From NCBI GenBank assembly GCA_965202585.1, contig OZ241829.1:18042001-18106000 (forward strand): a DNA stretch of 64,000 nucleotides. Reading direction: 5' to 3'. The DNA comes from Thalia democratica. Lineage: Eukaryota. A program made the position numbers and the translations under genes. Positions within the stretch are counted from its first letter, which is position 1. The number at the start of each line of letters is the position of its first letter. Positions 7,680-62,578 of this stretch are shown in pieces. Below the pieces are notes generated by a model. The model was not told the origin of the DNA. It searched no databases and saw only the letters and a program-made list of their open reading frames with translations.

Positions 7680-8165
7680 GTTTGTTTATTTAACTATCTT
7701 TTCTATTAGATTAGTAAATTCATTGATTACTTTTTCTATCATAAGCCATACAATTGTTAACAGATACTTTGTTTCACCAACAACAACAATTAACTTATGC
7801 ATGAATCTACAAACACAAATTCTTGACCGCTCTTCTAACATTGAAGGCAAAACTTTCCAACTCTTACTGGGTTCAAGTATGTATTTAAATGAAGACCTTT
7901 ATTCACTATCTCCGAGTTCATACAAGTTTTAGCCACTAATATTTAAATTTTAATCACTGTTAGTTTTTGGTAGAGAACAAACATGTTTGTTACTTGCTGA
8001 ATTTTTAAACTGAAAGGAGGATCTAAAATTTTAATGGTTCCATCTATGCTAACAACTAAACTGATGTCTTCTTGAGGACAATACCTTGCTTGATACAAAA
8101 CCGGTAACTTACGAGTTAACTGTTTGCCACACTTCATACTGAGTTGACTGTCCGACTTCATTAAA
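7680..8165 (-). pseudogene. Kelch-domain gene copy K1 (frameshifted, 3'-truncated)
   Basis: MKSDSQLSMKCGKQL...LYQARYCPQEDISLVVS, then after a frameshift KVLPSMLEERSRICVCRFMHKLIVVG. Matches the other copies. Confidence 0.7.
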
Positions 8166-9871
8166 ATACTTTTAAAACAAATAGAATCATAAGTAACCTG
8201 TTTTGTGGTAAAAACATAGAAACTATGACTAGTTAATTATAGATTTAAAAAATTAAAAATGAAAGTTTTGTTTTAAGTTTACTATGAATTTTGTTATAAA
8301 GTTCACAGAACTAATTTAACAGAATATTTTTCAAACAATATAATTACCAAAAACTTTTGAGCTTTGTTTAATACTGCTACTTAAGTTTAAAAAAAAAGTA
8401 AAGTTTGTAACATTAATGATTTTTTCTTAAAGTTTTCAAATAATTAAACTTTTTAATAAATAATGATTAAATAACTAAAATTGAGAAACAACAAATAAGA
8501 TTACTTATAGCAAACACGTTAAATTCTTAATCATAAACCGTTTTACTAGTCCTTGTATTTAGTGGTCAGTGGTTCAATAATATATTTTTAATATTCTAAG
8601 CAATCAAAACTTAATAACATTTATTGCAATTTATTACAAATTTTAATTTATCTACCACAAAAATCTTAGCAAGCAACATTTATACTATCTAATTGTATAT
8701 TTTAAGTAAAATTCTCAAAACAAAATGTTGCATTAGCTTACAATACAAGTAAACATGAAATAGTAAGATTTACTTACTATAAAACTAGTTATAAGTCATG
8801 AACTAGATATCATTGATAGCCCTTATCTTAGAGCTTTTAAAGGTAAGTTCTTATTAGGTTTTAATTTGTGAATAAATATAACTTTATAAACATAATGAGA
8901 AAAAAATTTCAAGTTTTAAATTACATAATGGTTTCAATGATTCACCTCAACATAAGCGTAAATTTATTTTACTTACAAAGTTTCGTTAACGTAATGATAT
9001 AGTGTGGATAGATGATAAATTTAATCGTATATTGTATACTTCTACAAATAAGAAAGTATTACTTAAGTTTATATCTTATACTATAACGAAAAAAAAAACA
9101 CAATATTGTATTACAAGGAGAAATAAAGTTTGATTTTTCAAATATCTAAATACTAAAAATTAAAAACAAAACTTAAAGTTCTAATTTAGCCTGTTCAGTT
9201 TATAAGTACATTTATAAAACTTATGTGTGTATCGTGTTTAAAGTCTTAAGTATAGTTTAGTGTAACCTAAATTTTTGTTCAAGTAAAATACTCGTTAAAC
9301 AAAAGGTCAAAAATATTTAAAACAATTAAATATATCAAACAAAATTAATATGTTTTGTTCTACGACTATAGATCAACAACGAATTTCTTTACAACATATT
9401 TTTTAACCTACTCTCAACCAAGTGTAAAGATTAATCATTAAGCATTGACAACTTGTACTTTAAATTGATATTATCAGGATATATTTTAACTTATACTTAA
9501 AATTTAACTTTCAAATCAAGTGTCTAATAAATGTTTGTGCAATCGGGCTGCATTAGTGGTTTTGAATGAAACACAGTAAGAAAACTTAAGCTGTTTTTTT
9601 TTTAATTTAAATTTAACTTGTAGATTAATTTTTTTTTAAGCTTTATTAATAAAAAAAAAAATAAAAACAATTTGTTTTTAGTCTACCGTAGAAAAGCTCA
9701 ATATTTTGAAAATATAACTAAACTTTTCTAAACTTTTTTCTTAACATGTTTTAAACTGAGTTATTGTTGTATGTAGATCATAAAATCATCTAAAAATAGT
9801 ATAAATAAAATTTTATATGTTTTGGTTTTAAGAAAACAAATAAAGATATCTCAACTACTAAGAAAGAAATA

Positions 9872-43914: not shown

Positions 43915-44555
43915 TATAACCACTGACCGATGGCTCGGTCGTAGTTAGGTTAGGTAATTGCTTATTATTGCTTTTCGCCTTAGTTTGCGACCGCGTCATG
44001 CGTTTTATGTCGTCCATCGATAAGCGTTTGGACGACATGAAATCTTAGTTAAAATATATATATATAATATTATAAAAAAACGTTCTAATGGAACGATCAA
44101 TAACTTTAATGTATTGAGCTTATTTATAATCTAGTTTCTAGAAAACAACTTTAAGTGAATGGTGAATTTATATACATTTAAAAACAAAACACGACAATGT
44201 GATAAAGTAACGTGATGAAGTTCTACCACAACTGACTCGAGGTTTTCTTAAGCTTAGTGACTGTACGCTGGTTACAATTTACAAAACTCAAGCAATTCTA
44301 CTATCCTTTGCAGAGCTTCTATTCCCTTTGCCCAATCCGTCAACAACACCCGCACAACAACCCAAACATCCTTTTAACACACTAAGAAAAACTTATTTAT
44401 TTTTTTACTCTCTTCTCTACTTACTACGTCACGCACAAGTCTTTCTGTAATTTTCCACTTAAAACTTTGACTCCTTTGATGTAATTTCCACTTAACTTAT
44501 CTTTGACTCCTTCATTGTACTTCTCGAAACAAGTAGTAAACTACTACTTGTTATA
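43915..44555 (-). repeat. 3' LTR (641 bp)
   Basis: Identical to 61938-62578 apart from 4 substitutions seen by eye. Ends are TATAAC and GTTATA. Preceded on the element strand by the PPT. Confidence 0.95.
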
Positions 44556-44569
44556 CTACCCTTCCTACC
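44556..44569 (-). promoter_or_regulatory. Polypurine tract (PPT)
   Basis: GGTAGGAAGGGTAG immediately 5' of the 3' LTR on the element strand. Confidence 0.85.
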
Positions 44570-45395
44570 TTACTTAATTGATTTGTTTTTATCTTCTGAG
44601 TGCTAAAATATTTGAAGTTATTTTCTCGTTCTAGCTTTTGAAACAAGTAGAAGCTACTACTTGTTATACTACCCTTCCCTAACTTCGTTTTTTTTTCTTT
44701 AATAATCTAAATGAGCACTTGTAGTTTGTATTTACTTTTGCTAGGCTAAAACCTCTACCCAACTTCAGACACTGCACCCAAAAAAACCTCACTACAGTCG
44801 TTAGTAGAACTAAGAAAAAGTTAAATTACGAAATTAATTTTTTACAGGAAACTGTAAAACTTTACCTTAAAACATGAATCGTTCGAGACTCAAAATATGA
44901 GAAAATAAACACGAAAAAATTATGCTAGTATTTAAATTTACTGGAAGTCTCTATCACTTCTTAATCTAAGTTTGAACAATGTTAATTTGGTTAAGCATGA
45001 CAAAAAAAAAGCATTTTCATTGAAATAAAAATAAAATTCTTTAATAAAACAATAGTTTTCAGATTAATAGTTATTTTTAAATACTAAGAAAAACATTTTT
45101 TTTGTAGAAATACACTAATATAGTTTTTTTAAAACGATTAAAAAAAAAAAATTAATTATAAGATGTTAGCAATTACACACAATTTTTAAAACAGAAAAAA
45201 AAAATTAATTAATACCTAAGCTACAATTTGTCTTGTAAGTTCACGTACACAGCTTCTCGTTGATAGGAACCTTCCGTTGCTGGAAAAGGAAATCTCTCGG
45301 ACAAGGGGTTCGTTCTTCTGGGGAAAACTCGTAAAACCTTGGTGGAAAAGTGCTAGGGACTTAAAATTTAGCTTGATTGAGAGGAAAACAGAGTG

Positions 45396-46508
45396 CTACA
45401 TCGAACTCGGTTTGTCTTGTCCGAAAAACTCTGGTGTATTTAAATTTGTCTCATTTACACAAGGGAACCAATGCGACAAATGATCTTCGTTTTTAAACGT
45501 TTCTTCTATTTCCGGAAAAGTTTTAGCTTCTTTAGAAACCGATTTCAAGGCCGTTCCCACCTGAAGGCAGTTCGAGATTCCATGCGACTGTTCCATAATC
45601 TCGGCTGTCCCATCTCTTTCATCTCCACTTTTCCAAATCTTTGATAATAACCCTCCGTCATTTGCTACTTTCTCTTTTTCTTTTTTTATAGATGACTTCT
45701 GTTTTTTATTCAATTTTTTACTGTCTGTCTCAATCTCTTCCTTTCCTGTGTCTCTATATTTCATCTTGATTATTGGTTTATCCTCGGACGTAGTTCTTTT
45801 CACGACATTGATATCAACGTCTCCACATTGAATAGAAAACAGGTGGTGTGTATTTGTTTTTGCAATTTTCACTCTCTCATGTTCTGGCGTAGATTGTCCT
45901 GAGTTTAGTTTTCTCTCGAGTCCATCTTGAATGGTCAAGCAACTCATTTTTTCATCTTCTATATTTTTCAGTTTGAGCTCTTTAACTTGTTGTTTCCATT
46001 TGACTATTTCTTTACTATGTTTTTCTTCATGCTCTTTGTTTGCCTGTTTGAGTTCCTTTAACTCTTTCAAGAGATATGTTATTCTTAGTTTTTTAGTTCT
46101 TAGTTTTTCTTGGACGTTTTCCTTTTTTCTCTTTTGCTTATTTAATCTTACTTGTAATACTTCAATGGTATTGTTGGCATTAAGTATTTTGTCACAAAGC
46201 TCAGTCCCTTCCTTTCTTAAATTTATTCCGTCCTGCCTTAAGTCATTTATAACTTCACTTTTTTTTCTAAGTTCGGCTTTTAACCTTTCTACTTCAGTTC
46301 CCAAAAATTCCATTGCCCCTTTCACGCTAGAATCATTAAATGATTGTACAGCTTTCTTTATGAGTTCTTCTTGTAAAAGTTCCACTAACTCCTTTTCTTG
46401 GAGAGTTTCTTTCCCTTCATGTGTAACGTTTGAAAGATTTTTCTCATCCTCAATTACTATAACTTTTGTTGCATCCTTTTCTTTAATAACCTCTTTTTGT
46501 TTGACCAT
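45396..46508 (-). CDS. Element accessory ORF370, Lys/Glu-rich coiled-coil protein of unknown function
   Basis: 370-aa intact ORF in GC-richer DNA. Long heptad-like region (EVERLKAELRKKSEVINDLRQDGINLRKEGTELCDKILNANNTIEVLQVRL). No recognised catalytic motif. Confidence 0.75.
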   Translation of the reverse strand: MVKQKEVIKEKDATKVIVIEDEKNLSNVTHEGKETLQEKELVELLQEELIKKAVQSFNDSSVKGAMEFLGTEVERLKAELRKKSEVINDLRQDGINLRKEGTELCDKILNANNTIEVLQVRLNKQKRKKENVQEKLRTKKLRITYLLKELKELKQANKEHEEKHSKEIVKWKQQVKELKLKNIEDEKMSCLTIQDGLERKLNSGQSTPEHERVKIAKTNTHHLFSIQCGDVDINVVKRTTSEDKPIIKMKYRDTGKEEIETDSKKLNKKQKSSIKKEKEKVANDGGLLSKIWKSGDERDGTAEIMEQSHGISNCLQVGTALKSVSKEAKTFPEIEETFKNEDHLSHWFPCVNETNLNTPEFFGQDKPSSM

Positions 46509-47296
46509 TTTCTTGACATTTTTTGGTCGTAGGCAAGGTGAGACTCTTTAGAATTTTTAACAAAACTTCCCACATCTTCGAGGTTGTTAGATCTTTCCTT
46601 TGCAACTTCCATTTCACTTAAAGTGTGCTTTTTTAGCTTAGTTGATGATTCATTTTCCACTCCTTCAGATATCTCCGTCTCTTGCATTTGAACTTTGCTA
46701 TTTTCTTTTCGTTTTTTGTTAGTTGTCTGGGCTGCCTCTTCGCTAGTTGGCGTTCGTGCTCTTTTCGTTGGCATAGTAACCTGCTTCCCACTATTTCCTT
46801 TTTGTATGTTATTTGTCGAGGAAAATGTCCTATCTCCTGATTGCGTTTCTACTTTTCTTGATCTCGTAGCGCTGATGTTTATTTTCATATTACTCTCCTG
46901 AATATTTTTTGATGTTGTCCATGACCCTTCATTAGATTGCCATCGTCTTGATGGCATTGTATTCCTACTCACATTCCTAGTTGGTTCGTATCTTGATTTG
47001 TTGAGTCTCATATCTTCTTCTCTTCTTGGCTGGTTATTTCTTAATGAATAGTTTGATCGTCTATAATATGTGGACCTGGAAGGTGGCGTTCTTCTATCGT
47101 CCCAGCGATAATAATTATTTGTTCGACTTATAATTCTTCTGTTTTCCGTTCTACTGTCATATCTCCTATCTTCAGAATCGTATTTGTCTCTTCTGTGATC
47201 ACAATTTTTGTTTCCATCGATTTCTGTTAAACTATCAGTTTCGCTTGCCAACAAAGACACAGCGTCTTCGGATTTGTTCGTGCTGCTACAACTCAT
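46457..47296 (-). CDS. Element accessory ORF279, Arg/Ser/Asn-rich basic, likely disordered protein of unknown function
   Basis: 279-aa ORF rich in RR, RY and SR dipeptides. Overlaps ORF370 by 52 nt in the -1 frame. Preceded by a splice-acceptor-like ttattcttcttaacag. Confidence 0.7.
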   Translation of the reverse strand: MSCSSTNKSEDAVSLLASETDSLTEIDGNKNCDHRRDKYDSEDRRYDSRTENRRIISRTNNYYRWDDRRTPPSRSTYYRRSNYSLRNNQPRREEDMRLNKSRYEPTRNVSRNTMPSRRWQSNEGSWTTSKNIQESNMKINISATRSRKVETQSGDRTFSSTNNIQKGNSGKQVTMPTKRARTPTSEEAAQTTNKKRKENSKVQMQETEISEGVENESSTKLKKHTLSEMEVAKERSNNLEDVGSFVKNSKESHLAYDQKMSRKWSNKKRLLKKRMQQKL

Positions 47297-47490
47297 TGTT
47301 AATTAAACAAAATGCTGTTAAGAAGAATAATTGTTATCCAAACGTTATTATATATATATTTTATTTATATATTTATTTTTTTAATATTTTTATATATTTT
47401 AACCAACTCATGTTTTATTTTTTTATTTTTGGATAAATATTATTTTCAGTAAATTTTATAAGTTCATATTACTTACTTTACTCTATTGTT

Positions 47491-47694
47491 TCAATGCATT
47501 CTCAATTTAAGTCTACTGTGGCTCTGTTTTTTTTTTTTTTTTTTTTTTTTTTTGAAAGTTATGTGATGAAGAAATAATGTGATTAATATTATAATAATTA
47601 TCCCTGACCTTGTTGCTAATGAAGGAAAAAGAAAAAACAAAAAAAATAATAAAATCAATATATACATGATTAGTAACGGCCACCTATTTCTCAT
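47491..47694 (-). CDS. Small hydrophobic ORF67 overlapping the env stop (AUGA)
   Basis: The ATG at 47694-47692 overlaps the env TGA at 47693-47691. Two hydrophobic stretches, then K9 encoded by an A27 tract. The sequence is low complexity, so the ORF may be fortuitous. Confidence 0.35.
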   Translation of the reverse strand: MRNRWPLLIMYILILLFFLFFLFPSLATRSGIIIIILITLFLHHITFKKKKKKKKKQSHSRLKLRMH

Positions 47695-49406
47695 TTTTTA
47701 TCCCCCTCATTTGGTTTTTTTCCACATTTCTCCCTTAGTGTTTGAATAATAACAACAACAATCAAGATTGTTGCTATAATTGTATAAATATGTCCTAAAA
47801 GTTCTAAGATATTCTTAATTTTCTTCCAAATCGAATATTTAATTTTTTCCAGCATGGCCCTCACATTGTTGTAGTCCATAGTATGCGTTTCTGCCAGTAA
47901 TTCTTCTATGTTGATTCCATCACTTATATATTCTTCCTTGGTAATTAACAACAAGTTCTTGAGTTGTTGCTGTGTAACATCTTCTTCAGACCAAGAAACT
48001 TCTTGTAAGTCTTCATTTAGGTTTTCCTCTAATATGTCGAAACTTTTTTCCTCTAGTTCAACATTTTTTATTGTAATCTTTTTCAGTGCTGGTATTTGAT
48101 CGATTAAGGTATTGTTTTTATATATTATCAAGCTGTTATTGAAACTAAATGTCTTTCGTTTAGTAGGTGTAACTGTAGAGCTAATTTTTTCCGTAAGAAA
48201 TCTTCCTTGGCGTAGTGATGTAAGCTTTGCTTCCGTGCCAGTATAGGCCACAAATAGTGGCCTATCTGACACATGACCTTTATAATATAAATTAGGCTGC
48301 AAAACTGCTTGGACTTTTGAGCACCTCAGTTCTTTTAAAATCCCTCCTGCGAATATAGCCTGTACCTCTCTTTCGAGAAGATAAGACAAGACTTGAGATG
48401 GATTTAGAATTTGACTTCCCATAAGGGCTACTATATTTGCCCGTGCCATTTCACAGGTAACTAATTTAAAATAGTTCCTAAAATTTTCGCTGTTCAAAAA
48501 CGATCCATGTGCAATAGATGTCATTGTGGCTTGAATATTTCGTAGTGATGCTGGTATATTATCATCTGCAGTTCCAATTGGCTCAATGTTGCTTTCCTCA
48601 GGAATTTCCAGCACATGATTGGTCATTGTACAAAAAAATCTCGATTTTTTCTTTTGTTTTAGGCAGGCTAATGATTTTGGTGAGCATTTCATCAAGTTAG
48701 ATACAATTAAGTTTGTTTCGTCTAGTTCGAATAAGTTTCCTTTTGAAGTTTTATGAATTGTTAGAGTTTTATTTTCACTCCTCGGTATAGTTTCACAGGT
48801 TTTTTCTCTAGGTTCTACATAATTGATTCTCCAGTTTCCTGCTGTACAAGTTTTGAATTTTCTACTGCAAAACAATTTGCCAAACGATATGTGATGTAGT
48901 TCTTCTGTTACCACATTTTTTGTAATTGTCAGATAGTTTAATTCAACATTTTTTACTTCTATTAGGTTTCCAAACCATCCATATTCCGGTTCCAAAATGT
49001 TTTTCGTAGTCATGGATCCATCCGCGTTTGGTAAGAGTCTCTCAACCGATGTGAAGTGTCTTTGTTCCCACAATTCACACTCCCTCTTTGTTACTAACTG
49101 GTGTTCCGTTCTTACTAAGTTGCAGACATTACTCCCGAAAAGGTAATGTATGCAGTTATAAGTATCTTTTGTCATTCTACAAGCTTTTGCCCCTAAGTTA
49201 TACATTTGATTAAAAGGTTTAAAAACCCTTACTGGGTATATTTTAGTAGTGTTTCCTTTGTTTATGCACTTCCCAGGGGGTATAATTTTGAACTGTTGTA
49301 TTACCTCATTCTTGCAAAGGTCTATATATACCTTCCTTGTTATATCTGAATAGACCATAGCTAAGCAAAGTGTTGTTATCCATAATGTTTTCATGACCAG
49401 CTTCAT
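47691..49406 (-). CDS. env: Envelope glycoprotein, class III fusogen-like (rhabdovirus G / herpes gB-type features)
   Basis: Signal peptide (KTLWITTLCLAMVYS) and a Cys-rich ectodomain with N-glycosylation sequons. Two fusion-loop-like segments (CRMTKDTYNCIHYLFGS and EPEYGWFG). gB-like core NPSQVLSYLLEREVQAIFAGGILKELRCSKV. C-terminal TM (IYTIIATILIVVVII) and a short basic tail. Confidence 0.8.
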   Translation of the reverse strand: MKLVMKTLWITTLCLAMVYSDITRKVYIDLCKNEVIQQFKIIPPGKCINKGNTTKIYPVRVFKPFNQMYNLGAKACRMTKDTYNCIHYLFGSNVCNLVRTEHQLVTKRECELWEQRHFTSVERLLPNADGSMTTKNILEPEYGWFGNLIEVKNVELNYLTITKNVVTEELHHISFGKLFCSRKFKTCTAGNWRINYVEPREKTCETIPRSENKTLTIHKTSKGNLFELDETNLIVSNLMKCSPKSLACLKQKKKSRFFCTMTNHVLEIPEESNIEPIGTADDNIPASLRNIQATMTSIAHGSFLNSENFRNYFKLVTCEMARANIVALMGSQILNPSQVLSYLLEREVQAIFAGGILKELRCSKVQAVLQPNLYYKGHVSDRPLFVAYTGTEAKLTSLRQGRFLTEKISSTVTPTKRKTFSFNNSLIIYKNNTLIDQIPALKKITIKNVELEEKSFDILEENLNEDLQEVSWSEEDVTQQQLKNLLLITKEEYISDGINIEELLAETHTMDYNNVRAMLEKIKYSIWKKIKNILELLGHIYTIIATILIVVVIIQTLREKCGKKPNEGDKK

Positions 49407-49492
49407 TATACTAACTACCTTCCAGCTTAAATTTTCTTATTTATAACCAAAACGAAAACGAGAGAGGTGGAAAGAAAAAAATAGTTCGCCAA

Positions 49493-49525
<33 letters not shown>

Positions 49526-49803
49526 TTTATTTCTTTATTTCTTTTTTTTTTTTTTTTTTTTTATTTATTTATTTTTTTTTTTTTTTGCCCAATCATCTTA
49601 GTATTGAGAGCGGAAAAATAACAATATCAAAAATAAAATTAATAATAAGCAAGTAAGTTTAATTTCCACATTAATTATTCTTCATATGATACACGGTAAT
49701 TTTGTTTGACAATTTCAAGTGGTCGAGTTTATAGTGATATTAGTTATGGAATTTCTTAAAAAGAATCATATACCTGATATATATACAAAATTAATACGAT
49801 GGC

Positions 49804-50127
49804 TTAATTGGTCTCTCCCACCATTTCAAAATACGGTTGGTTATAAATGATGAAATACCTTAATTTCATCTCCAAATTGAATAGTGAAATATCTTGAAAA
49901 CTTATCATGTGAGTAATTCCTACAAAACCTATTGCGTACGAGCATTTCTCACTTACTTCGTTTTCAAAAAGGAAATTAAAATGGGTGCAGAAATTTTTTA
50001 TCTTATTACTGTTTGAGCATTCATATAAATGAAAATTTTTATGTAAGAATTCTTTAAAGTTCTCATTCGAATTTATATAATTATAGAAGTCCTCTCCATA
50101 TACGGGGTTAATCATAAGTAAGATCAT
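49804..50127 (-). CDS. Element accessory ORF107, unknown function
   Basis: 107-aa open frame in very AT-rich DNA, directly upstream of the poly(A) block preceding env. Aromatic-rich with three Cys. Confidence 0.4.
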   Translation of the reverse strand: MILLMINPVYGEDFYNYINSNENFKEFLHKNFHLYECSNSNKIKNFCTHFNFLFENEVSEKCSYAIGFVGITHMISFQDISLFNLEMKLRYFIIYNQPYFEMVGETN

Positions 50128-50863
50128 TACAATTTTATCTAAAATAGTTATAATTTTTAGGGTGATTACTAATCAATATGCCTACAAAAAATTTTACTTT
50201 GCTAAATTAGCTCAATTAAATTGAAGATGTAAAAATAAAATAAAAAATTAGTGAGGGATGGAATAAAAATATGGCTAAAAAAAATACAAAACAAAACATT
50301 TTCTGAGGTAAAACTACTTAATTAATTCAGTAATTCATAAAAAACTATAAACTGTTTCGTAATTATAAACATAGACAATCATATTTAAACATACATTTTT
50401 ATTATTAATTATATCTGCTTATTTGCTATTTAAATCTAAAAAAATAACAGATATTATGATATTGAAATTCAATGTTATTTAAAGTTAAGTAATTAGAAAA
50501 ATTACATAAAAAAACAAAAAACTTATAACAAAACCTAAATATTGTTTTTTTCAATTTTGTAATAAACTCAATGTCCGTTTTTCCATGACCCTTTCAACTT
50601 CGTCGTTTTTTTTTCTGACAGATGTCTCGTGGAATTGTCGAGCAAAAAGGTATCTTCTTGACTTCATCATGGACGTTTGAATTTAAAAGCAAAGTTTCTT
50701 TCGTAGAAACATCATCATAAAAAATATTTCATTTGGAGTATCTTCTTTCCAAATATTTTCGAGCAGTTTAGCTCGGAATGTTTTCATAGTTCAATAATCT
50801 TTATAAAATAATAAATATTTTTGTTTCTATTTAAGAAGTTTAATTAAGTTCTATTTAGGTGAG

Positions 50864-51326
50864 TTCCATGTCAACTTATTCGTCCCCACATATCTTCCAT
50901 ATCAACTTATTCGTCTCCACACATATTCCATATTAACTTATTCGTCTCCACACATCCTCCATATCAACTCATTCGTCTCCACACATCTTCCATATCAACT
51001 TATTCGTCCCCACACATCTTCCATATCAACTTATTCGTCCCCACACATATTCCATTTCAACTCATTCGTCTCCACACATCTTCCATATCAACTTATTCGT
51101 CCCCACACATCTTCCATATCAACTTATTCGTCTCCACACATTTTCCATATCAACTCATTCGTCTCCACACATCTTCCATATCAACCTATTCGTCCCCACA
51201 CATCTTCCATATCAACTTATTCGTCTCCACACATATTCCATATCAACTTATTCGTCTCCACACATCTTCCATATCAACTTATTCGTCCCCACACATCTTC
51301 CATATCAACTTATTCGGTTCCACACA
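50864..51326. repeat. 31-bp tandem repeat, ~15 copies, inside the LTR element
   Basis: Unit ttccatatcaacttattcgtc(c/t)ccacacatc with exact 31-bp period from 50864 to 51298 plus a partial last copy. Confidence 0.95.
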
Positions 51327-54300
51327 ACGACTATCTTTCAGTTAATATTACTGGAGCTGTTTACCCTTCCAAACTTTAAAAAAATTTTACCTCACATAAA
51401 ATGATAAATATTTCTGAGTTCAGCCAACGAAGTTCGTATAAAATATTGACAAATTGATAAGTTTCATTATGTAGTGTCACGGGAATAGAATTGCGTCCTC
51501 CAGACTACTAACTTTTAGTTTTTTATTTGTTTAAAATTTATTTATTAAATGTTTTTTTTTTTTTTTTTTTTTTTTTTGACAACAAGTCTGCTGCTGATTA
51601 ATGCCTGATATTGAAATAATACTACCAAAAAGTATGATATTACCTGATTACTTTTGAAAAACTGTACACACAATTGCTTGTTATAAATCGTTAAGTTTGT
51701 ATTTGAAAATAAGAATTTTCAAAGTAAAGAATTCAAAATAATCTAGTTTTTAAAATTTAATGCTACTAAATTATTTGGTAAATCACTACTTTTAAAACAC
51801 TTCCATATGTTTTATTAGTCAATAATTAATAATTTTTAGAGCCTTAGCACTTGGAGTTAAAATATTTTTTTAATAATTAAAGTTATATAAGACTGAATGA
51901 AGATTACAATTTTAAACTATTTATTGTTCATTAGTCGAATATTTGCAATGTTTTAGAATAAGTTCACTTAAAAATTTAATTTATAAATTGATATAGTAAC
52001 AAAGAGATAGAGTAACTCGGATGTTAATATACTGTTATAATATTTCATGTTTGACATAATGTCATGATTTGACAACTTTAAAACACTTGATTTGTGGTTA
52101 TTCTACTGGCTTAAAAAAAACTATATTTATATTATTTTTATGATATACAATGCACTAAGATTAATATAATTAAATGAATACTGAAATTCACTGTTAACAT
52201 GCCATGCGAGGTTGCTTACGAGTTAAGTAGTTAAACTAGCAATTTAAAAAGGACCAGAACTTTGCGCTTTTTTAAAAAACCAAAATTTCTTCATCATAAA
52301 TGAATAACATCAACAATATATATATACAAGAAAAAAAAATAAGATAAATTAATATGAAAACTACAACAGTCAGACTATACATATAGTAACTATAAATCAT
52401 AATATATTTCTAAGCATGACATAATGAGAATAAACTTAATAAGTAATTTGTAGTTTAAGACAATGAAAGTTCTACATCGATGCTCAAACCCATAAAATGC
52501 CTTATGCATAATATCAACATTACTGTTACCTAAACAAATCACAACCGCTTGTGAAGCTATAATCAAAAGTTTATATACCTATTTTTTATACACTTTTTAA
52601 GCAAACATTAGTGGAATTTTTTAGGCATTAAGTAAGATTGTTAAAAAATAGATAAAGCTACTCATACTTTATATTTTTTTATAATTCATTTTAATAAACT
52701 TAATTAATAAGTTATTAAAGCAAAATATTTATTATATTATTTAGATAATTTAATGAATATAATTAAATGATAACAGTTTTTTAATCTAAATTCACAGAAA
52801 TATGTTTGATAGTTATTGTATCATTATAGCAATCAATAGTTAAATATTAAATGTATTAATTAACTTTTTACTGAATTATTATTATAACTTTATCAATAGA
52901 TATAAATCACTTTAAGTAATCAAAATAGCTTTAAACCTACAGAGAAAACTAATTATTAAACTAGAAGTTTGCCGTACAATGTGACGTAATATATCAACAA
53001 ATTGAGTTAAGTATTTCTTTTCAAATTATGTTACAAGAGACTAAAAAGACAATTAGTTAATAAAATTAAGTGTTTTGGTAAGAAAAACTTCATAGTACTT
53101 TTAGGTTCTGTTTTGTTATCGATTTTAAAGTCAAACGCCATACTAAATAAATTAAAGCCAGATGTTATGAAAATTTTTCAATTGTTATTTACTCCTAACG
53201 TTTTAGATTTTATCGATAAGAAAATAAAATCAAACTGAAATTTAAATTGATAAGAAAGTTTAACTTTTACGACAGTAACTATAAAAAATTATCAGATGCT
53301 TGTAAAACGAAAATAGCAAGTTTTATTTTGTTATTGTTTGAAAAATTTATTTTTAACAATTTTTGTTACAAAATCTGTCAATCATTACTCCTATTTGTTT
53401 ATGATTAAAGTACATTTTTACTGCTGTAACTTTATCTTAAGAAAATTCGATTTTTTATACGACGGGAATTTTATCACAAACAGGTGCGGTTAAATAATTT
53501 AAACTCCTTCCGTTGTGTTAACAATCTTTAAAACATTGTTAAAAAAGATTTAAAGTTAGGCTATAAGATTGTATCGTAATAATTTAAAGTTTGAAAATAA
53601 ATATTCTTAAAGTTATTAAGTATTGTGTAGTTATTATACACAAATTGTAATTAGAATATACTAAAACATTCTAAACTTCTTATATTCTTAATGAAAATCA
53701 CACTAACAAAAATAATAGCGACATAATTATACACATGACATAGTTAAATAGTTAAATGTAAACAACAAAACTCTTTTATTTTTTTTATTAAATAATATTT
53801 GCAACTTTTTTATGCTTTTTTTTTATCTTTTAATTTTATATTTTTCTTATTTATTCTTTATTTTACCAACTAAACATATGAAAATAAAATAACTTAAAAT
53901 TTAGTATATTGAGTAACAAAAAAACATTTAAATGTTTTGATTATTTTGAACAAAATGAATCTAATAAATATTAATTTGCACTTAAGCAAAACCGAAGTTA
54001 CCTAACTATAATTATGTCAAAATTATATAAAAAATCATTTTATAAATATTATCACTGTTCTGTTTAATTATTATCATCTTTAATATCTCGTATCAATATT
54101 TTATAGTTACGGTGTTAAACATAACAACACATCAAAAAAAATCGAAAAAAAAAAAAATTTCTAGTTTAAAGAATCGAAGTTTATATTGATAACAATAATT
54201 ATTAAGTGAAGTCATAACTGTTAATATTATTCGTAAAGTAATTTGTTTTAAAACGCAGGATAACGTTAGATGTGTCTTAATGTGTTTCTAATAATGTTCC

Positions 54301-54753
54301 TCTATTTTTTCAAATGAAAGTACTCAATTTTAATTAACCCACATACTACAATAACATATAAGCTTCAAACTTTGGATTATAAATTATAATTTAAGCAATC
54401 ATATATTTGTTTAATAATATAAAATTTTAACATCTCTACTTATTGTTTATTTAATTATTATACCAAGTAGTAATAATAAAAAAATATAAAAAAAATTATC
54501 TAAATAATGAAAAAATAAAATAGTTACTAACAGTTTAATTGATTTCTTCCGAATGAGCTGAATTATGTAGAAACAAGATTTCTTCAAAACTGGTCTAAAA
54601 TTTATTCCTATTCGTCTGCATCGTGACCTTCCTTTCATATTCCCTCACGCGCAGAATCAATAAGTATCCTAGATTTTGTCCTGCTTCCTGTCGATCGCTT
54701 AAATTTTCCTAAATATTTCATAATCAACTATTTAACACTATTTCCCGCTAAGT

Positions 54754-55240
54754 CTACTGTGGCTCTGCATAATTTTTAGTTTCCATGTTCTAACTTAGGT
54801 CCAACGATAAGAAAAAGTAATGTATTTGACCTCTCCCAATTTCTAGAATATATTTTCTAAAAATAGTGTTAAGCTCTGCTGTGGCTCTGCATAATTTTTA
54901 GTTTCCATGTTCACTTAGGTCCAACGATAAGAAAAGTAATGTATTTGACCTCTCCCAATTTCTAGAATAGATTTTCTAAAAATAGTGTTAAGCTCTGCTG
55001 TGGCTCTGCATAATTTTTAGTTTCCATGTTCACTTAGGTCCAACGATAAGAAAAGTAATGTATTTGACCTCTCCCAATTTCTTAGAATAGATTTTCTAAA
55101 AATAGTGTTAAGCTCTGCTGTCCATTTTCTATACTTCATAAAGCTTCATATGGCCAACAAACAAATACATAAAAATGTTTATCCACCAAAATTTTGTTTT
55201 CCATGTTCTCCTTTTAGGCCCAACGATAAGAAAGGATAAA
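54754..55240. repeat. ~120-bp tandem repeat, 3 copies plus partials, inside the LTR element
   Basis: Units start at 54754, 54876, 54995 and 55115 (partial): ct(a/g)ctgtggctctgcataatttttagtttccatg...aaatagtgttaagct. A diverged partial copy lies at ~55192-55240. Confidence 0.95.
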
Positions 55241-56921
55241 AGTTAATATAAAAGTAAAAACTACTGCCTTTTTGAAGTATGAAATTGACGTGTTGTAAAA
55301 CAACGCGTACTTTATTAATTGATTATTATTCGCAACTCAAGAATTTAAATTATGGTACTATAATTTATCATAGATTAAAACATTTTTAAAATCATTAATA
55401 ATTAAGTTAACATAAGTAGTGAGATTTCCTTACAAATATGTAATAATATAAAAAAAAATAATATAATAATATTTAACTCTTTACTATTATAATACATATT
55501 TAACAAAACACAAAAAATCTCAGTATGCTACATATAATTCTAATGCAACTAAAAAAAATTTGAAGTCTGAGCTTTCCTTTCAGTTGATTTTTTTTTTATA
55601 AATGTTTCTTGAAAAGCAGATATATATGATCACAACAAAAGAAAAAAATCTTAAATATCTTCTATCAAAATTGTAACTACTTGATAAAAATTTAATTATC
55701 TTCAGTTTCTTGTTCAATTGAATTCCCCTGACTCCTATACTTGAAATAATTCAATTTTGAATAAGTTGAAAAGTTTAACTTAAAAAAGCACTCAAGTTTC
55801 CTTAGCTTCTTAAATGATCCAAGTGCTGGCAAAATAAATTTATGCCACAACTTTTTAAATATTTTAATTTAAAAAGTTTTGTGTAAACATATTCATTAAT
55901 CTAACAATTTCTAATTTTAAGTATCGCGTTTTTTTTTTTAATTTTATTATATTTTATTTATCTAAATAGTTACAAATATTAATCAATTATTCGCCGACAA
56001 GCTAAAAATTTATACTAAATAATATCAGCTGGGAATATTATTACAAAATAAAACAAAATAAAAACATTTATTTTTCAAAATCCTACAAAAAATTTAAAAA
56101 ATTTGTTTCACTAATTATATTCCCATGTTAATTAAATGTCACAATTTCGAATACAAATCCTTTGTGTATAACGTCGCATATTAAAAAATTAAAATATTCG
56201 TTTGCACTTATTAACAAAATTTATTTAAAAACAAATTTTTATTCAAAAGCTAATTTTTATTCTCATGCTTTACTAATTTCTATTGACAAAAAGTTTCATA
56301 TTATATTACAAAGTTGTTAAATGAAAGCTATAGCATCTTATGCATTTATATAATATGTTAAATAAAATCTGAAACAATATTTATTTACTCATGCCCATCG
56401 ATACTTTATACTCGTAACATCGATACAAGATTTATAAATACTGTTAATACATAATATAATACATTATTCTAAAATTAATAGTTTATAATATTAATTATTC
56501 AAAAATTTTTTTTATAAGTTTTATGATTTTTGGAAATTTTTATTAATTTTTATTATTTTTTTATATTTTTTATTTTTATTTTATTTTTATTTTATTTTTA
56601 TTGAAATTTTTTTTTGTTATTATATTATGGACAAAATAAAAAAAATTAATTACATGCAATAAGATGAAAAAGTAACACAACAAGTTGATTACCATCGCTT
56701 GTTTAAGCTTAAACAGGCCTTACTAAATTAACACAAAAAAAAATCTTAATAAATAAGTATTTCGCACCCAATTGCTTATTGTAACGAATCACACAGCTAT
56801 GCTTTAATATTAAAACTATTTTTATATATCATGCTAACTAAAACAATATTGTACGAATAAAATATTTTGAACATGTCAATCTGATTAATGTTAATTCCTA
56901 CTCTCAATTCAAAACTTACTT

Positions 56922-59900
56922 TTAATCGGATTCATCGTATGTGGTAGTGTCTATATCTGCGTAGTTTAGTTCAATATTTCTTTCCCTCAAATTGTATGCA
57001 GCCGTAGGTCCCAATTTGTTACCCTCCGCGTCGAGCTCCTCACGAGGGAAATACCCTTTTACGTTTCTTAATGAGACTTTTATTGGTTTACCATTTTTTT
57101 CTATGATCATGGAGTGATCGGAATAGGAAAGTACTGGGTACGGGCCGTGATATTGTGCACTCAGATGTGATTTATTCTTTTTTCTAATCCACACTTTCTC
57201 ACAGTCAAAAAGACCAGGCTCATAATAAGTATGCTTTTCTGTGTAGCATTTATGTTTTATATATGCATTCGACATCGTATGAAGGAAGAAATTTGTTTCA
57301 TAAGTGTCAATCTCCTTATGGTTGTTGCTGACCTTGTTGAAAAATATCCTACCACTTATATTTGTGCACGTTCCTAATGCTAATTGCGACGGAGTAAACA
57401 GATTCCCTTCAATAAACGAGTTGTTAATGGATGTAGTTATCAGAGGTAAGAGCATAGACCATTTTTCTTTATCGACTAACGTTCTTAATGCAACATTAAT
57501 ACTTCTGTGTTGTCTTTCAACAAAACCATTACTTTCTGGACTATTAGGTGGTACGTATCGATGGTCTATACCTAATTGTTGGAATACTTCCTTGAGAAGG
57601 CTATTAGTAAACTCACATCCATTGTCTGTGACAATAACTTGTGGTACTCCAAAAATCCCGCACCACGATTGTATCAGCGCATTTTTTACTGTCTGAGCTT
57701 TCTTATTAGGTAAAGGTGTAGTAACCAAAAATCCGGTACCTCTGTCTTTGATAGTCATAATATACTTGTTATCATCTGAAATTACATTCATTGGACCAAT
57801 AAGATCCACATGAATAAATTGGAAACGTTCTGTATTCTTTGGATACAGACCTATTTTAGGTCTATTGTGTCTAAAAGTTTTAGTAGCTTGGCACTCGGCA
57901 CAGCTCTTACACCAATATTTTATGTCAGTCTTCAAAGTTGGCCACCAGTAATCCTTTGCAGTCGCTATTATAGATCTTTCTACTCCCAAATGTAGATATC
58001 CGTGAGCTAATTCAAATGCTGTCAAACGTATTATCGAGGGTAAGATTATACGTTGGTTATCTCCTTCTTGGATTACTGCTAAGTCCTCCGATCCCACATA
58101 TTTTATTTCCTTTTTTAATTCTTTGGCTTTCTTTAATAATAAAGGTTCGTTTTTTTGAAGTTGGGCTATTTCTAATTTATTTAATGATGCCGCTGTTATT
58201 AACTCTTCTTCATTTTCAGTCAGATCATCATCTGTGTCAGAACAGTTCAAATCTGTGTTTGAGTTATGAACATAGTCTGGATCATTATCTTGTAGGGCTA
58301 TGTGCATGGATGTGCTATGAGGTGGTCTGCTTAATATATCGGCTACTATGTTATCGGCACCAGCTATATGTTTTATAAAAGGGTTAAACTCCTTGATTGC
58401 CGCGATGTAACGTTGTTCCATTGGTGACTGATCTTTAATTGGATTTGTGATTGCTTTTTCTACTGACTGACTGTCGGTCCTAATAATAAGTTCACGACCA
58501 ATTATCCTACTTTGAAAATGTTTCAAACTTAAATACAGAGCCCTTAGTTCTTTATAAAAAGTAGATCTATATCTCTTAAGGCTAGGAAGTTTTTTTGAAA
58601 AGAACGCAAGAGGCCTTTTATTTCCATCTATTCCTTCCTGCTCAAACACCGCCCCCACATCAGTTTCGTATGCGTCTGAGTATAATATTAATGGCTTATT
58701 GTGATCTTCATACGCTAAGGTTGCTGCCTTTGCCAACACCTTCAATGTATCCTTATATGCATTAATTTGGAATTGATTTAGTTTTAGTGGTTTTTTGTTA
58801 GTAGCTTTGGGTCCTCCAGACAATTCGTTAAGTGGTGCTGTGATTTCAGATAATCTTGGAATGTGATGGTAATAATAATTGACTAAACCGATGAATCTTT
58901 TTAGTTCCTTTCTATTTGTTGGCCTCGGTAAATTAATAATTGCTTCTACTTTGCTATCCATGACACCTATACCATCGGCTCCAATTGAATGTCCTAAAAA
59001 ATCTACTTTTGGTTCTGCTATTATACACTTCTTAGCGTTTAAATACAGTCCACTATCTTGTAATGTTTGAAGCACCTTTCTAAGATGCAATTTGTGATCT
59101 TTTTTAGTTTCACTAAAAACAAGTATGTCATCTAGATAAACATAAACAAAACCTGTGCAAGGAGTCAAAATATCTTCCATCATCATCTGAAAACGCATCG
59201 GCGCATTCATGAGGCCAAATGTTGTGCGATGAGGGATAAACACACCATGATGAGCAATTATAGCAGCATATTTTTGAGAGTTTGGGTGAATTGGAAGACT
59301 GTAGTACGCTTCTTTTAAGTCAAGACAGGAAAAAATTTTTGACCCATTTGGAATAAACTCAGGAAGCTCATCAATGCGAGGCAATGGGTATGAGATTGGG
59401 TTTGTGTGGGCATTTAAGGTTGTATAATCTATGCAGATTCTTATATTTCCATCTTTTTTTGGTACCATCGTAATTGGTGATACATATCTTGCTTCTTGTC
59501 CTCTTGACATTGCCCCTCTTATTATTAAATCGTTAAAATTTTCCTCAACTATTTTACGTCTCATTCCGTTGCATTTACGTGCTTTAATCATTCTTGGTAC
59601 TAGATTTTTTACTTTTATCTCCAGTGAATGTCCATGTTTAACTGGTTTATTGTAATCTGGTTCCATTGTAAGTTCTTTGAATTCCTCAAGTATGCTTTTT
59701 ATATTGTTTTTGTCATCCGATTTCTCTTGGTAACTAGTTATTTTGAGTTTGTTACATGGTCCCTCAGCAGCTGTGGTTAATTCCCCAGCTGTATATAGTC
59801 TGGCTTTACGATTTAAATTGTATTCAAGAATTTCGGAAGTGTGGGGTGAAATAATTAGTTTGTTAGCTTTGAGTATATCTAATCCAATAATTCCATAGTC

Positions 59901-60512
59901 CCCCGATTCCTTGGTAACCCAAAATGTGGCTTTTTTTAAAAGCATATTTCCAATGCTGAGGTCCACATCTACACTTCCTATTGGATAAATGGTTGAGTTT
60001 CCCAAACCCTTTATTGTTTTACTTTTTGGCTGGAAATGTTGATTTATTCCATTAGTTAACATTTTCGGTAAGATAGACACTTCACTACCTGAATCGATCA
60101 ATAACAAGACTCCCGATTTTTTTTCCAGTGCGAATAGGAGGTTTTTAGGAAGATTTTTTATATCGGTTGTTTCTGTTTTATTTTCTAAAACTGAGCATTG
60201 TTTAACCGGAACATTACTTTTGTCCAAAACCAATTCGTTTATCTTTTTCAAAATATTTTCTAGATTGTTGTTTATTTGATCTGTATTTCCCGAACATGTA
60301 GGCATTGTACTTTCATGAATATTATTCTCTTTCGTTCCTTTCATGCTTACAGTTAATGAGCTCTTTTGATTTACAAAACTATTTTCTGTGTTATCCACAG
60401 GTATTGCTTTGTAACTGCAGTTTTTATTATCTTCGTCGTATAACTTAGTTTCCTTGTCCTTTGTTAAGTCTGTTTGCAACGTTGCAACTTTTCTGTTGTT
60501 GGTGATTCGCAA
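56922..60512 (-). CDS. pol: Pol polyprotein: aspartic protease, reverse transcriptase, RNase H, integrase (Ty3/gypsy order)
   Basis: PR LIDSGSEVSIL. RT CIDYTTLN, LDLKEAYY, FGLMNAP, YLDDILV. RH SDAYETDVGAV, ELRAL, RTDSQS. IN HGYLH..CKSC, VDLIGP, TDNGCEF, NGFVERQH, GPY. Open for 1196 codons. The frame starts at TTG, and the first ATG is codon 57. Confidence 0.97.
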   Translation of the reverse strand: MRITNNRKVATLQTDLTKDKETKLYDEDNKNCSYKAIPVDNTENSFVNQKSSLTVSMKGTKENNIHESTMPTCSGNTDQINNNLENILKKINELVLDKSNVPVKQCSVLENKTETTDIKNLPKNLLFALEKKSGVLLLIDSGSEVSILPKMLTNGINQHFQPKSKTIKGLGNSTIYPIGSVDVDLSIGNMLLKKATFWVTKESGDYGIIGLDILKANKLIISPHTSEILEYNLNRKARLYTAGELTTAAEGPCNKLKITSYQEKSDDKNNIKSILEEFKELTMEPDYNKPVKHGHSLEIKVKNLVPRMIKARKCNGMRRKIVEENFNDLIIRGAMSRGQEARYVSPITMVPKKDGNIRICIDYTTLNAHTNPISYPLPRIDELPEFIPNGSKIFSCLDLKEAYYSLPIHPNSQKYAAIIAHHGVFIPHRTTFGLMNAPMRFQMMMEDILTPCTGFVYVYLDDILVFSETKKDHKLHLRKVLQTLQDSGLYLNAKKCIIAEPKVDFLGHSIGADGIGVMDSKVEAIINLPRPTNRKELKRFIGLVNYYYHHIPRLSEITAPLNELSGGPKATNKKPLKLNQFQINAYKDTLKVLAKAATLAYEDHNKPLILYSDAYETDVGAVFEQEGIDGNKRPLAFFSKKLPSLKRYRSTFYKELRALYLSLKHFQSRIIGRELIIRTDSQSVEKAITNPIKDQSPMEQRYIAAIKEFNPFIKHIAGADNIVADILSRPPHSTSMHIALQDNDPDYVHNSNTDLNCSDTDDDLTENEEELITAASLNKLEIAQLQKNEPLLLKKAKELKKEIKYVGSEDLAVIQEGDNQRIILPSIIRLTAFELAHGYLHLGVERSIIATAKDYWWPTLKTDIKYWCKSCAECQATKTFRHNRPKIGLYPKNTERFQFIHVDLIGPMNVISDDNKYIMTIKDRGTGFLVTTPLPNKKAQTVKNALIQSWCGIFGVPQVIVTDNGCEFTNSLLKEVFQQLGIDHRYVPPNSPESNGFVERQHRSINVALRTLVDKEKWSMLLPLITTSINNSFIEGNLFTPSQLALGTCTNISGRIFFNKVSNNHKEIDTYETNFFLHTMSNAYIKHKCYTEKHTYYEPGLFDCEKVWIRKKNKSHLSAQYHGPYPVLSYSDHSMIIEKNGKPIKVSLRNVKGYFPREELDAEGNKLGPTAAYNLRERNIELNYADIDTTTYDESD

Positions 60513-61731
60513 TTAGATGATTCATCTTACAATCTTTTCTATTGCAAGAGTAAGCCTCCTTTCCGTATCGCCAATGTTGATAGCATAAGTCACCCTGGTT
60601 TGTAAACGGATTTGGTTTTGCACTAGTTTGTTGATAGTTCCAATTATTATTATTGTTTTTATTGTGTGAGTAAAAGTCTGGAATTTGATGATTTCGATAC
60701 GGTCTAAAATTTCCGTTGTTGTTATTGTTGTAATTAAAATTATTGTTTGTATGTCCGATATTTCGATTGTTATACCTTCTAGGATTTGTACTATAAATTT
60801 GATTAGTTCGTGGCGTTCTATCATAATTTACCGGATTGGAAGGTATTTTTTCCTCTTGACAATTCCAAATACCTTGTGTCCTTCTCTTGAAGATATCATA
60901 GTTTTCATTAAAGTTTTCTCTGATTTTTGTTTTCAATGAAAGTGGACTTAAGTAGTAGCAGAAAAATTTTATGCGGTCAACTTTGCTGCTTTCTGCGAAT
61001 TTAGTTGCATCTGCGAGGAATACACCAAACGGGGTAGAAGCATCATATTGTGGTACCTTACTGAGAATTTCGCTCAGAGAGTCGTCCCTATTAACACAAA
61101 AATCACAAAATGATTCGAAGTTTCGATGTTCCCTGTCCACTAATCTATAAAAATTCGAAACATCCTCAGTTGGCCATTTTTCGATAAGTATGTTATACTT
61201 CACGTAATCATCACGTATGTTAAGTCGATGAAATTCTTCCTGGAAATACCCCAATACATCTCTAGGATTTTTTACTTTCTCTATTCTGTTGATTTTTTTT
61301 ATTAATCTGTCCATTTCCATATATTTTCCATATACTGTATGGTTTGAGTTAATATTATCAAAATTTCTATTATAAATATTTTGGTTCTGCATATAATCTT
61401 CGTCGCAAAAGTTGTTTTTATTTGCATACATGTTATTACTGATGTGATGCGTCATGTTATCATCTGTATGTATAAAGTTTTGACTTGTGATCAGATTTTC
61501 CAGTTTATTATTATTTTCACAAATTTTCTCCCTTATTCTACGAATTTCTTCTTCCGCCTGTTGTCTTCTAAGGTTTTCTTCGCTTATCTTAAGTAATTTA
61601 TTCATTTCTTCTATTTGTATTTCATAGTCTGTTTTCTTAATAATGTTTAAATTATCCTGGGTCGAAATGTTATTCTGTTGAAAAAAATTTTTTTGATCAT
61701 TTTCTAACTTCGTCGAAGGTATTTTATCCAT
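60445..61731 (-). CDS. gag: Gag with C-terminal CHCC zinc-finger motif
   Basis: 428 aa upstream of pol. Asn-rich linker, then CYQHWRYGKEAYSCNRKDC (C-x2-H-x9-C-x4-C), ending QGN*, as in CsRn1-group elements. Confidence 0.9.
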   Translation of the reverse strand: MDKIPSTKLENDQKNFFQQNNISTQDNLNIIKKTDYEIQIEEMNKLLKISEENLRRQQAEEEIRRIREKICENNNKLENLITSQNFIHTDDNMTHHISNNMYANKNNFCDEDYMQNQNIYNRNFDNINSNHTVYGKYMEMDRLIKKINRIEKVKNPRDVLGYFQEEFHRLNIRDDYVKYNILIEKWPTEDVSNFYRLVDREHRNFESFCDFCVNRDDSLSEILSKVPQYDASTPFGVFLADATKFAESSKVDRIKFFCYYLSPLSLKTKIRENFNENYDIFKRRTQGIWNCQEEKIPSNPVNYDRTPRTNQIYSTNPRRYNNRNIGHTNNNFNYNNNNNGNFRPYRNHQIPDFYSHNKNNNNNWNYQQTSAKPNPFTNQGDLCYQHWRYGKEAYSCNRKDCKMNHLIANHQQQKSCNVANRLNKGQGN

Positions 61732-61806
61732 TTCTGTTTTTTTATTTGCCTGTATAATTCGATCATTAAATAAAGTTCTAGCTTCGTCATAAGTTGGTGT
61801 ATTGAC

Positions 61807-62061
61807 CTAAAAAGTTAATCCTTCTGTATCAGTTTTTTTACCTTCTTCGCCCTGATTTTCAACATTTCTATCATTCGGTCCGCTATTCGCTGTTTCATCG
61901 AAAGGTGGTACATCTGTGCTTGTAGGGAGGACGCCATTATAACCACTGATCGATGGCTCGGTCGTAGTTAGGTTAGGTAATTGCTTATTATTGCTTTTCG
62001 CCTTAGTTTGCGACTGCGTCATGCGTTTTATGTCGTCCATCGATAAGCGTTTGGACGACAT
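61807..62061 (-). CDS. Upstream ORF84 starting in the 5' LTR, in frame with gag
   Basis: ATG at 62061 inside the LTR. Runs across the LTR end and PBS. Ends at a single TAG followed by 25 sense codons and the gag ATG in the same frame. Confidence 0.5.
   Translation of the reverse strand: MSSKRLSMDDIKRMTQSQTKAKSNNKQLPNLTTTEPSISGYNGVLPTSTDVPPFDETANSGPNDRNVENQGEEGKKTDTEGLTF
61920..61936 (-). promoter_or_regulatory. Primer-binding site (PBS)
   Basis: TGGCGTCCTCCCTACA begins 1 nt after the 5' LTR end. TGG is complementary to a tRNA 3' CCA. The priming tRNA was not identified. Confidence 0.65.
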
Positions 62062-62578
62062 GAAATCTTAGTTAAAATATATAAACATAATATTATAAAA
62101 AAACGTTCTAATGGAACGATCAATAACTTTAATGTATTGAGCTTATTTATAATCTAGTTTCTAGAAAACAACTTTAAGTGAATGGTGAATTTATATACAT
62201 TTAAAAACAAAACACGACAATGTGATAAAGTAACGTGATGAAGTTCTACCACAACTGACTCGAGGTTTTCTTAAGCTTAGTGACTGTACGCTGGTTACAA
62301 TTTACAAAACTCAAGCAATTCTACTATCCTTTGCAGAGCTTCTATTCCCTTTGCCCAATCCGTCAACAACACCCGCACAACAACCCAAACATCCTTTTAA
62401 CACACTAAGAAAAACTTATTTATTTTTTTACTCTCTTCTCTACTTACTACGTCACGCACAAGTCTTTCTGTAATTTTCCACTTAAAACTTTGACTCCTTT
62501 GATGTAATTTCCACTTAACTTATCTTTGACTCCTTCATTGTACTTCTCGAAACAAGTAGTAAACTACTACTTGTTATA
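61938..62578 (-). repeat. 5' LTR (641 bp)
   Basis: Direct repeat of 43915-44555 at a constant offset of 18023. Followed by the PBS on the element strand. Flanked by ATAG. Confidence 0.95.
62189..62198 (-). promoter_or_regulatory. Candidate LTR TATA box
   Basis: GTATATAAAT on the element strand, ~130 nt upstream of the ORF84 ATG. Weak evidence in AT-rich DNA. Confidence 0.3.

Follow-up and report, generated by a model that had tools for sequence, protein, structure and literature searches.

An orphan gene behind a gB-type env in long Ty3/gypsy elements of Thalia democratica

Extra genes in env-carrying LTR elements

The gB-type env is widespread in gypsy elements, as documented in the accessible part of a survey by Chary and Hayashi (PMC13524379), and the HSV/gB-type ancient errantiviruses described there consist of gag-pol and, after it, an env of class III gB type, between LTRs and in near-identical copies. 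The filters given in that part of the survey admit a pol-env gap of up to 1 kb or an env within 5 kb of pol, and LTRs up to 14 kb apart, and neither "accessory" nor "downstream of env" occurs in its main text. Env or other third ORFs are also found in invertebrate gypsy elements such as Oikopleura Tor, whose env is expressed from spliced or internally promoted subgenomic mRNAs (PMC4402516), and those of bdelloids, whose ORF3s are enzymes or env-like (PMC5408684); the accessible sections of both papers describe no ORF behind env. The plant elements Retand, Grande (gene23) and PvRetro13 (an SMC-like ORF) carry family-wide ORFs of undetermined role in the stretch separating pol from the 3' LTR, some of them nuclear or coiled-coil, together with long spacers that contain tandem arrays; as far as the excerpted accounts go, these ORFs are antisense and sit in elements without a viral fusogen (PMC7264820, PMC11963269). 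CERV of Cer1, as presented in the available text, is an orphan, fast-diverging nuclear protein encoded by the last ORF before the 3' LTR, with a coiled-coil part and a candidate NLS; it is made from a spliced mRNA and needed for export of the genomic RNA, a task for which HIV Rev is the counterpart solution (PMC10309623). Extra ORFs in LTR elements are already known; the case here, an orphan post-env gene behind a gB-type env, is one that we did not recognise in print in a literature search that covered few subscription papers.

The window analysed here, 64,000 nt of Thalia democratica DNA, contains an LTR element of ~18.7 kb at 43,915-62,578, which lies, with all of its features, on the minus strand. 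It belongs with Ty3/gypsy by its pol order (PR-RT-RH-IN) and by its LTR pair, target duplication, polypurine tract (PPT) and primer-binding site (PBS). The 641-bp 3' LTR (43,915-44,555) is preceded by the PPT (44,556-44,575); the element has a 4-bp target duplication, ATAG, and its LTRs have the ends TA...TA, not TG...CA. The 5' LTR (61,938-62,578) is 99.4% identical to the 3' LTR (637 of 641 bases) and is followed by a PBS-like TGG site. One sibling insertion spans 22.6 kb and has identical 794-bp LTRs, so the family has recently been active. gag-pol (56,922-62,061) is broken in the window; in a sibling it is one ORF of 1715 aa that starts within the 5' LTR. Wherever both could be located, the gag ATG of each family falls within the 5' LTR, such that the ORF traverses the PBS; the overlap in the window is 61,938-62,061. 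Elsewhere in the window (4,000-36,000), segments recur at a spacing of 10-12 kb, accompanied by numerous tandem arrays of 32 bp that run in either orientation. The DNA also occurs in marine metagenomes.

Between pol and env lies a non-coding spacer of ~6.7 kb (50,173-56,921) with tandem arrays of 31 bp (15 copies) and 119 bp (three copies), and the copy numbers of both arrays vary among insertions (10 and 29 copies of the 31-bp unit in L038). A small conserved ORF just 5' of env (49,804-50,127; 107 aa from its ATG, 122 from stop to stop), a candidate second accessory gene, is 80-98% identical across family copies, has a mildly hydrophobic N-terminus and finds no match in Pfam; the same slot in the sister family introduced below holds an unrelated ORF of 130-240 aa. 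The env itself (47,691-49,406) is a separate ORF of 571 aa with a signal peptide and a C-terminal TM helix as membrane anchor. Its structural model (mean pLDDT 61) matches HSV gB in Foldseek with an E of 1.4e-15 at a TM of about 0.3, and also matches glycoproteins of chu-, rhabdo- and nyami-like viruses, which together place it by prediction among class III, gB-like fusogens.

Relative to the HSV/gB-type errantiviruses in the accessible part of the survey, the window family has additional ORFs flanking env on either side; its pol and env lie 7.5 kb apart, and 18 kb separate its LTRs (PMC13524379). These values exceed the gap and length limits quoted above, which would likely miss the family; accounts of env-carrying gypsy elements give them simple gag-pol-env genomes, and size filters of this sort would likely drop long ones.

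A single frame behind env

The first-pass annotation had placed two ORFs downstream of env and before the PPT, of 279 aa (46,457-47,296) and 370 aa (45,396-46,508), and had read them as two genes for a pair of proteins. The ORFs are there, overlapping by 52 nt in different frames between env and the PPT and 3' LTR; the pair is not. With the 370-aa ORF as query we find 85 matches in the genome, and took the 19 best sibling loci, a sample of top matches that is biased toward intact copies. In 10 of these 19 a single ORF of 662-734 aa, mostly 692, spans both window ORFs, and the frame is continuous across the position of the window junction in 18 of 19 (16 by frame pattern and two more by ORFs of 528 aa), the remaining locus being truncated. 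The ATG of the 370-aa ORF corresponds to an internal residue, Met294, of the ~690-aa sibling ORF, such that it represents the C-terminal part of a longer protein, and the 279-aa ORF is the disordered N-terminal part of the same protein extended by ~35 off-frame residues. We refer to the whole gene, 45,396-47,296 in the window, as ORF4.

Alignment to 18 siblings (the truncated locus, L008, was omitted) reveals one frame break, near 46,520, that sets the window apart from all 18, and in the window an in-frame deletion near 46,714 of a block of ~30 codons that 17 of the 18 retain. Public sequencing runs cover the frame break in four of eight cases, two of which (X1 and X4) are one sample, and all contig depth at that position is of the sibling state. 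In ENA, independently deposited proteins (630, 650 and 663 aa) are likewise whole, the last of these at 85% identity, and indels common to open ORF4 copies preserve the frame. Besides the 30-codon deletion, the window copy carries a stop in gag (61,807-61,809) and an 8-nt frameshift near 60,478. The frame break sits in a mononucleotide run, where an assembly error may be the sole cause of the split, but the other lesions of the copy are not of that kind.

These comparisons argue strongly that both ORFs are halves of one accessory gene of about 690 codons, separated by a frameshift private to the window copy, and we put the probability of one real accessory gene at about 0.9. The two overlapping ORFs that the window does display would be accounted for if they encoded distinct proteins or were linked by programmed frameshifting, but the split is private to a copy that has further lesions in gag-pol, and we regard this reading as highly improbable. 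A single copy of a repeat had thus yielded a false two-gene reading, which is a caution for annotation from one locus.

Conservation, selection and origin of ORF4

ORF4 is kept across its family. Of 19 family loci, 11 have it open, versus 10 of 19 for env with the same script, which missed some env copies otherwise seen open. The first-pass annotation had proposed conservation in related elements as a check, and its outcome here favours the gene: the family with the closest env (49%), hereafter the sister family, has an ORF of 393-428 aa in the same post-env slot in four of four full-length matches, and sister-type relatives at 56% and 37% identity retain the same motifs. Direct sequence comparison of the two families' ORFs gives a BLASTP E of 0.075 and an hhalign probability of 0.45%, and the cross-family HMM score is matched by 4-19 of 300 shuffles uncorrected and by 70-260 of 300 with composition correction. 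The best-aligned stretch is an acidic N-terminal motif, D-x-V/I/L-S-L/I...S-D/E...SL (47,228-47,269 in the window), not significant by itself at that hhalign probability. The shared slot, the shared architecture, a few colinear motifs and the sister relationship of the envs suggest that the two ORFs may be homologous. One sister-family copy (L023/L024) also carries a fragment of LTR that separates pol from env, and beyond its 3' LTR a pol copy in inverted orientation; a second copy lacks the additional LTR, and we rejected a three-LTR structure as a general trait of the sister family.

More distant env families, of which one or two copies each were read, are without the gene: six representatives have only ORFs of 24-84 aa in the 0.6-1.4 kb between env and LTR, and two further families have no ORF of 150 aa after env. 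The families with ORF4 are long (18.7 and 22.6 kb in the window family, about 16 kb by summation in the sister family), and the others measure about 10-11 kb, also summed; these shorter env-carrying relatives are multi-copy despite having no ORF4. Short families that lack post-env genes and long families that have them occur side by side in this genome, a natural comparison for the need of accessory regulators.

In the sister family the post-env ORF is under clear purifying selection, with dN/dS from 0.36 (0.24-0.55) to 0.49 (0.33-0.75) and values of 1.3-1.7 in the off-frames. Amino-acid constraint on ORF4 in the window family is weak: dN/dS is 0.50-0.72 by NG86, compared with 0.05-0.28 for env, and rises to 0.83-0.96 after transition correction, with intervals that mostly reach 1. 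These corrected values, not distinguishable from 1, would suit a passenger origin, in which host or viral DNA was captured and then drifted almost neutrally in the window family; the many length changes and the resemblance of the env to glycoproteins of negative-strand RNA viruses would fit the same origin. An example would be a phosphoprotein-like gene taken along with the class III glycoprotein. We consider this unlikely, given the selection in the sister family and the frame-keeping indels noted above, and given that the chance of remaining stop-free under the observed substitutions is 0.015 in the window family (92 random substitutions) and 0.001 in the sister family, as computed for pairs picked among open copies.

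A donor for such a passenger is also absent from the sources searched. No homolog outside these elements is found in Pfam, PDB sequences, a set of 5.8 billion proteins or the Atlas (nothing at or above 0.9), in searches some of which scored only about 8000 candidates each, and of which the one against 1.84 billion representative proteins used the profile of the sister family rather than that of the window family. Scans of metagenome contigs with the env alignment and with the sister ORF4 alignment return no relative. No Pfam family scores above its cut-off, including the TRP28/transposase-28 and SMC profiles, which agrees with the earlier statement that no zinc knuckle or enzyme motif can be recognised. 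Within the genome, the weakest matches to ORF4 are all broken and six of eight adjoin LTR-related DNA, and we therefore see no host donor gene; the captured host gene that the first-pass annotation had named as a possible refutation did not emerge. ORF4 is best described as an orphan accessory gene behind env, with selection evident in the sister family and a function that we infer below.

Old, decayed ORF4 and LTR remnants adjoin a single repeated host-like gene at its copies on C5, C8 and C523 (loci L049, L051, L052, L053, L055 and L056). At another locus, L095, a gag remnant (3-575) is separated by 7 kb from an ORF4-like frame (7,851-8,807), and the intervening DNA matches neither pol nor env.

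Predicted protein, putative splice signals and possible functions

The ORF4 protein is predicted to be basic and to consist of a disordered segment, a helix of 140 aa and a second disordered segment. In an AlphaFold2 model of a natural open sibling copy, pLDDT is below 50 at residues 1-331 and 494-663, and a single helix occupies residues 354-495, with pLDDT 82-94 over 361-470 and a heptad pattern. The corresponding stretch of the window (45,903-46,328) would encode one continuous helix of ~140 residues, probably a coiled coil; a helix dimer prediction scores 0.29 against a mark of 0.32, which is evidence neither way. The N-terminal segment at residues 51-150 (46,847-47,146), basic and disordered by composition and model, contains 21 Arg and 14 Ser as counted on the sibling copy. 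The Arg/Ser-rich and coiled-coil features noted earlier are thus both real, the latter as a prediction, but they belong to one chain rather than to two proteins, and with nine RS/SR dipeptides in 692 aa the former is not an RS domain of the splicing-factor type. An Arg cluster near residue 53 (seven Arg in 20 residues) is reached by 7-8 of 500 shuffles; its sister-type equivalent is not significant (55-500 of 500). The pI ranges from 9.1 to 9.9, no segment is hydrophobic (KD19 at most 0.6), and six of six proteins scanned have one or more K-K/R-x-K/R motifs, such motifs being common in Lys-rich proteins. Two export-signal-like patterns are kept in four of four sister-type proteins, but within the coiled coil, and such patterns are not enriched in ORF4 of the window family.

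A block resembling a splice acceptor (branch point, pyrimidine tract, ACAG; 47,315-47,338), recognised from sequence, precedes the ORF4 ATG by 18 nt in 12 of 12 family copies. It is retained where the upstream DNA has diverged (seven of seven). A similar block is found 35 nt before the ATG in four of four sister-family copies. This conservation suggests a spliced ORF4 mRNA. Contigs from the RNA runs X19, X20 and X22 (seven, five and two, respectively) all lie outside the acceptor site; those of X19 cover parts of ORF4 at a depth of 4-11, which does not demonstrate transcription, and gaps in such coverage are no evidence against it. A scan for RNA folds finds three of 118 windows at z < -3 and no outstanding structure resembling a Rev response element.

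An element of 18-22 kb with splice signals must still export its unspliced RNA, and our preferred, still tentative, reading is that the ORF4 protein regulates the element's own RNA in the manner of Rev or of Cer1 CERV. The mRNA would be spliced at the conserved acceptor, the protein would enter the nucleus through its basic motifs, self-associate through the helix and bind RNA through the Arg-rich segment, and it would thereby help to export or protect the 18-22 kb unspliced genomic RNA, which contains these putative splice signals as well as the long spacer. In favour of an RNA regulator we count the acceptor-like block in both families, the basic pI, the length of the two ORF4 families and the CERV precedent; against it we count the dN/dS of the window family, the sister Arg cluster, the export-signal-like patterns, the RNA fold scan, the sequence comparisons between the two families' ORFs and the short multi-copy relatives. 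ORF4 resembles CERV in being an orphan, fast-diverging last ORF before the 3' LTR with a coiled-coil part and candidate NLS, and spliced mRNA, shown for CERV in the accessible text, is probable for ORF4; CERV takes the place of env, has exons in common with gag and contains M and G domains that are folded (PMC10309623). ORF4, by comparison, comes after an env that is intact, starts at an ATG of its own and by prediction contains no globular domain; the likeness would be one of mode, and we claim no homology. On a broader and more doubtful view, these would be complex invertebrate errantiviruses, an env lineage that acquired accessory genes flanking env on either side, lengthened to 16-22 kb and came to encode a spliced, orphan, Rev-like protein, a further independent invention beside those of vertebrate retroviruses and Cer1.

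A basic protein of nuclear type might instead bind the DNA of the element, for example its spacer arrays, and act as a transcription factor or counter host silencing, for which plant VANC is a precedent and which resembles the role proposed for the extra ORFs of Retand and Grande. Fast evolution would suit such a conflict with the host, and tandem arrays are present in non-coding parts of both ORF4 families; Retand elements, too, combine extra ORFs with arrays in the part of the account available (PMC11963269). No folded DNA-binding domain is predicted in ORF4, short tandem repeats (2-2.5 copies) are also found in three families without it, and dN/dS in frame never exceeds 1, and we rate anti-silencing as improbable, on a par with the passenger origin.

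Slightly less probable still is a matrix- or tegument-like structural adaptor, a coiled-coil protein that would join Gag particles to the env tail or to the membrane. The long helix would suit this role, as would the fact that ORF4 tracks the env lineage: env trees pair the two ORF4 families at 0.96, and at 0.999 with ENA relatives added, the integrase tree pairs them weakly (0.78) and the RT tree does not, in trees comprising elements of this genome and those ENA relatives. The ORF4 protein, on the other hand, has no TM segment or signal and carries basic NLS-like motifs, and it is absent from related families whose env is of this type and has a similarly short tail. Because the gene is missing from these env-carrying families, particle assembly has less in its favour than the other functions suggested in the first-pass annotation, and regulation of the element's RNA remains the reading that we prefer.

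In one further multi-copy family, a short 266-aa ORF resembles the N-terminal part of env and has no TM anchor (L101, 3,258-4,070; L102, 5,916-6,728). Nine matches have a 270-aa frame, and the ORF may represent a piece of env that is secreted, in an element that is non-autonomous.
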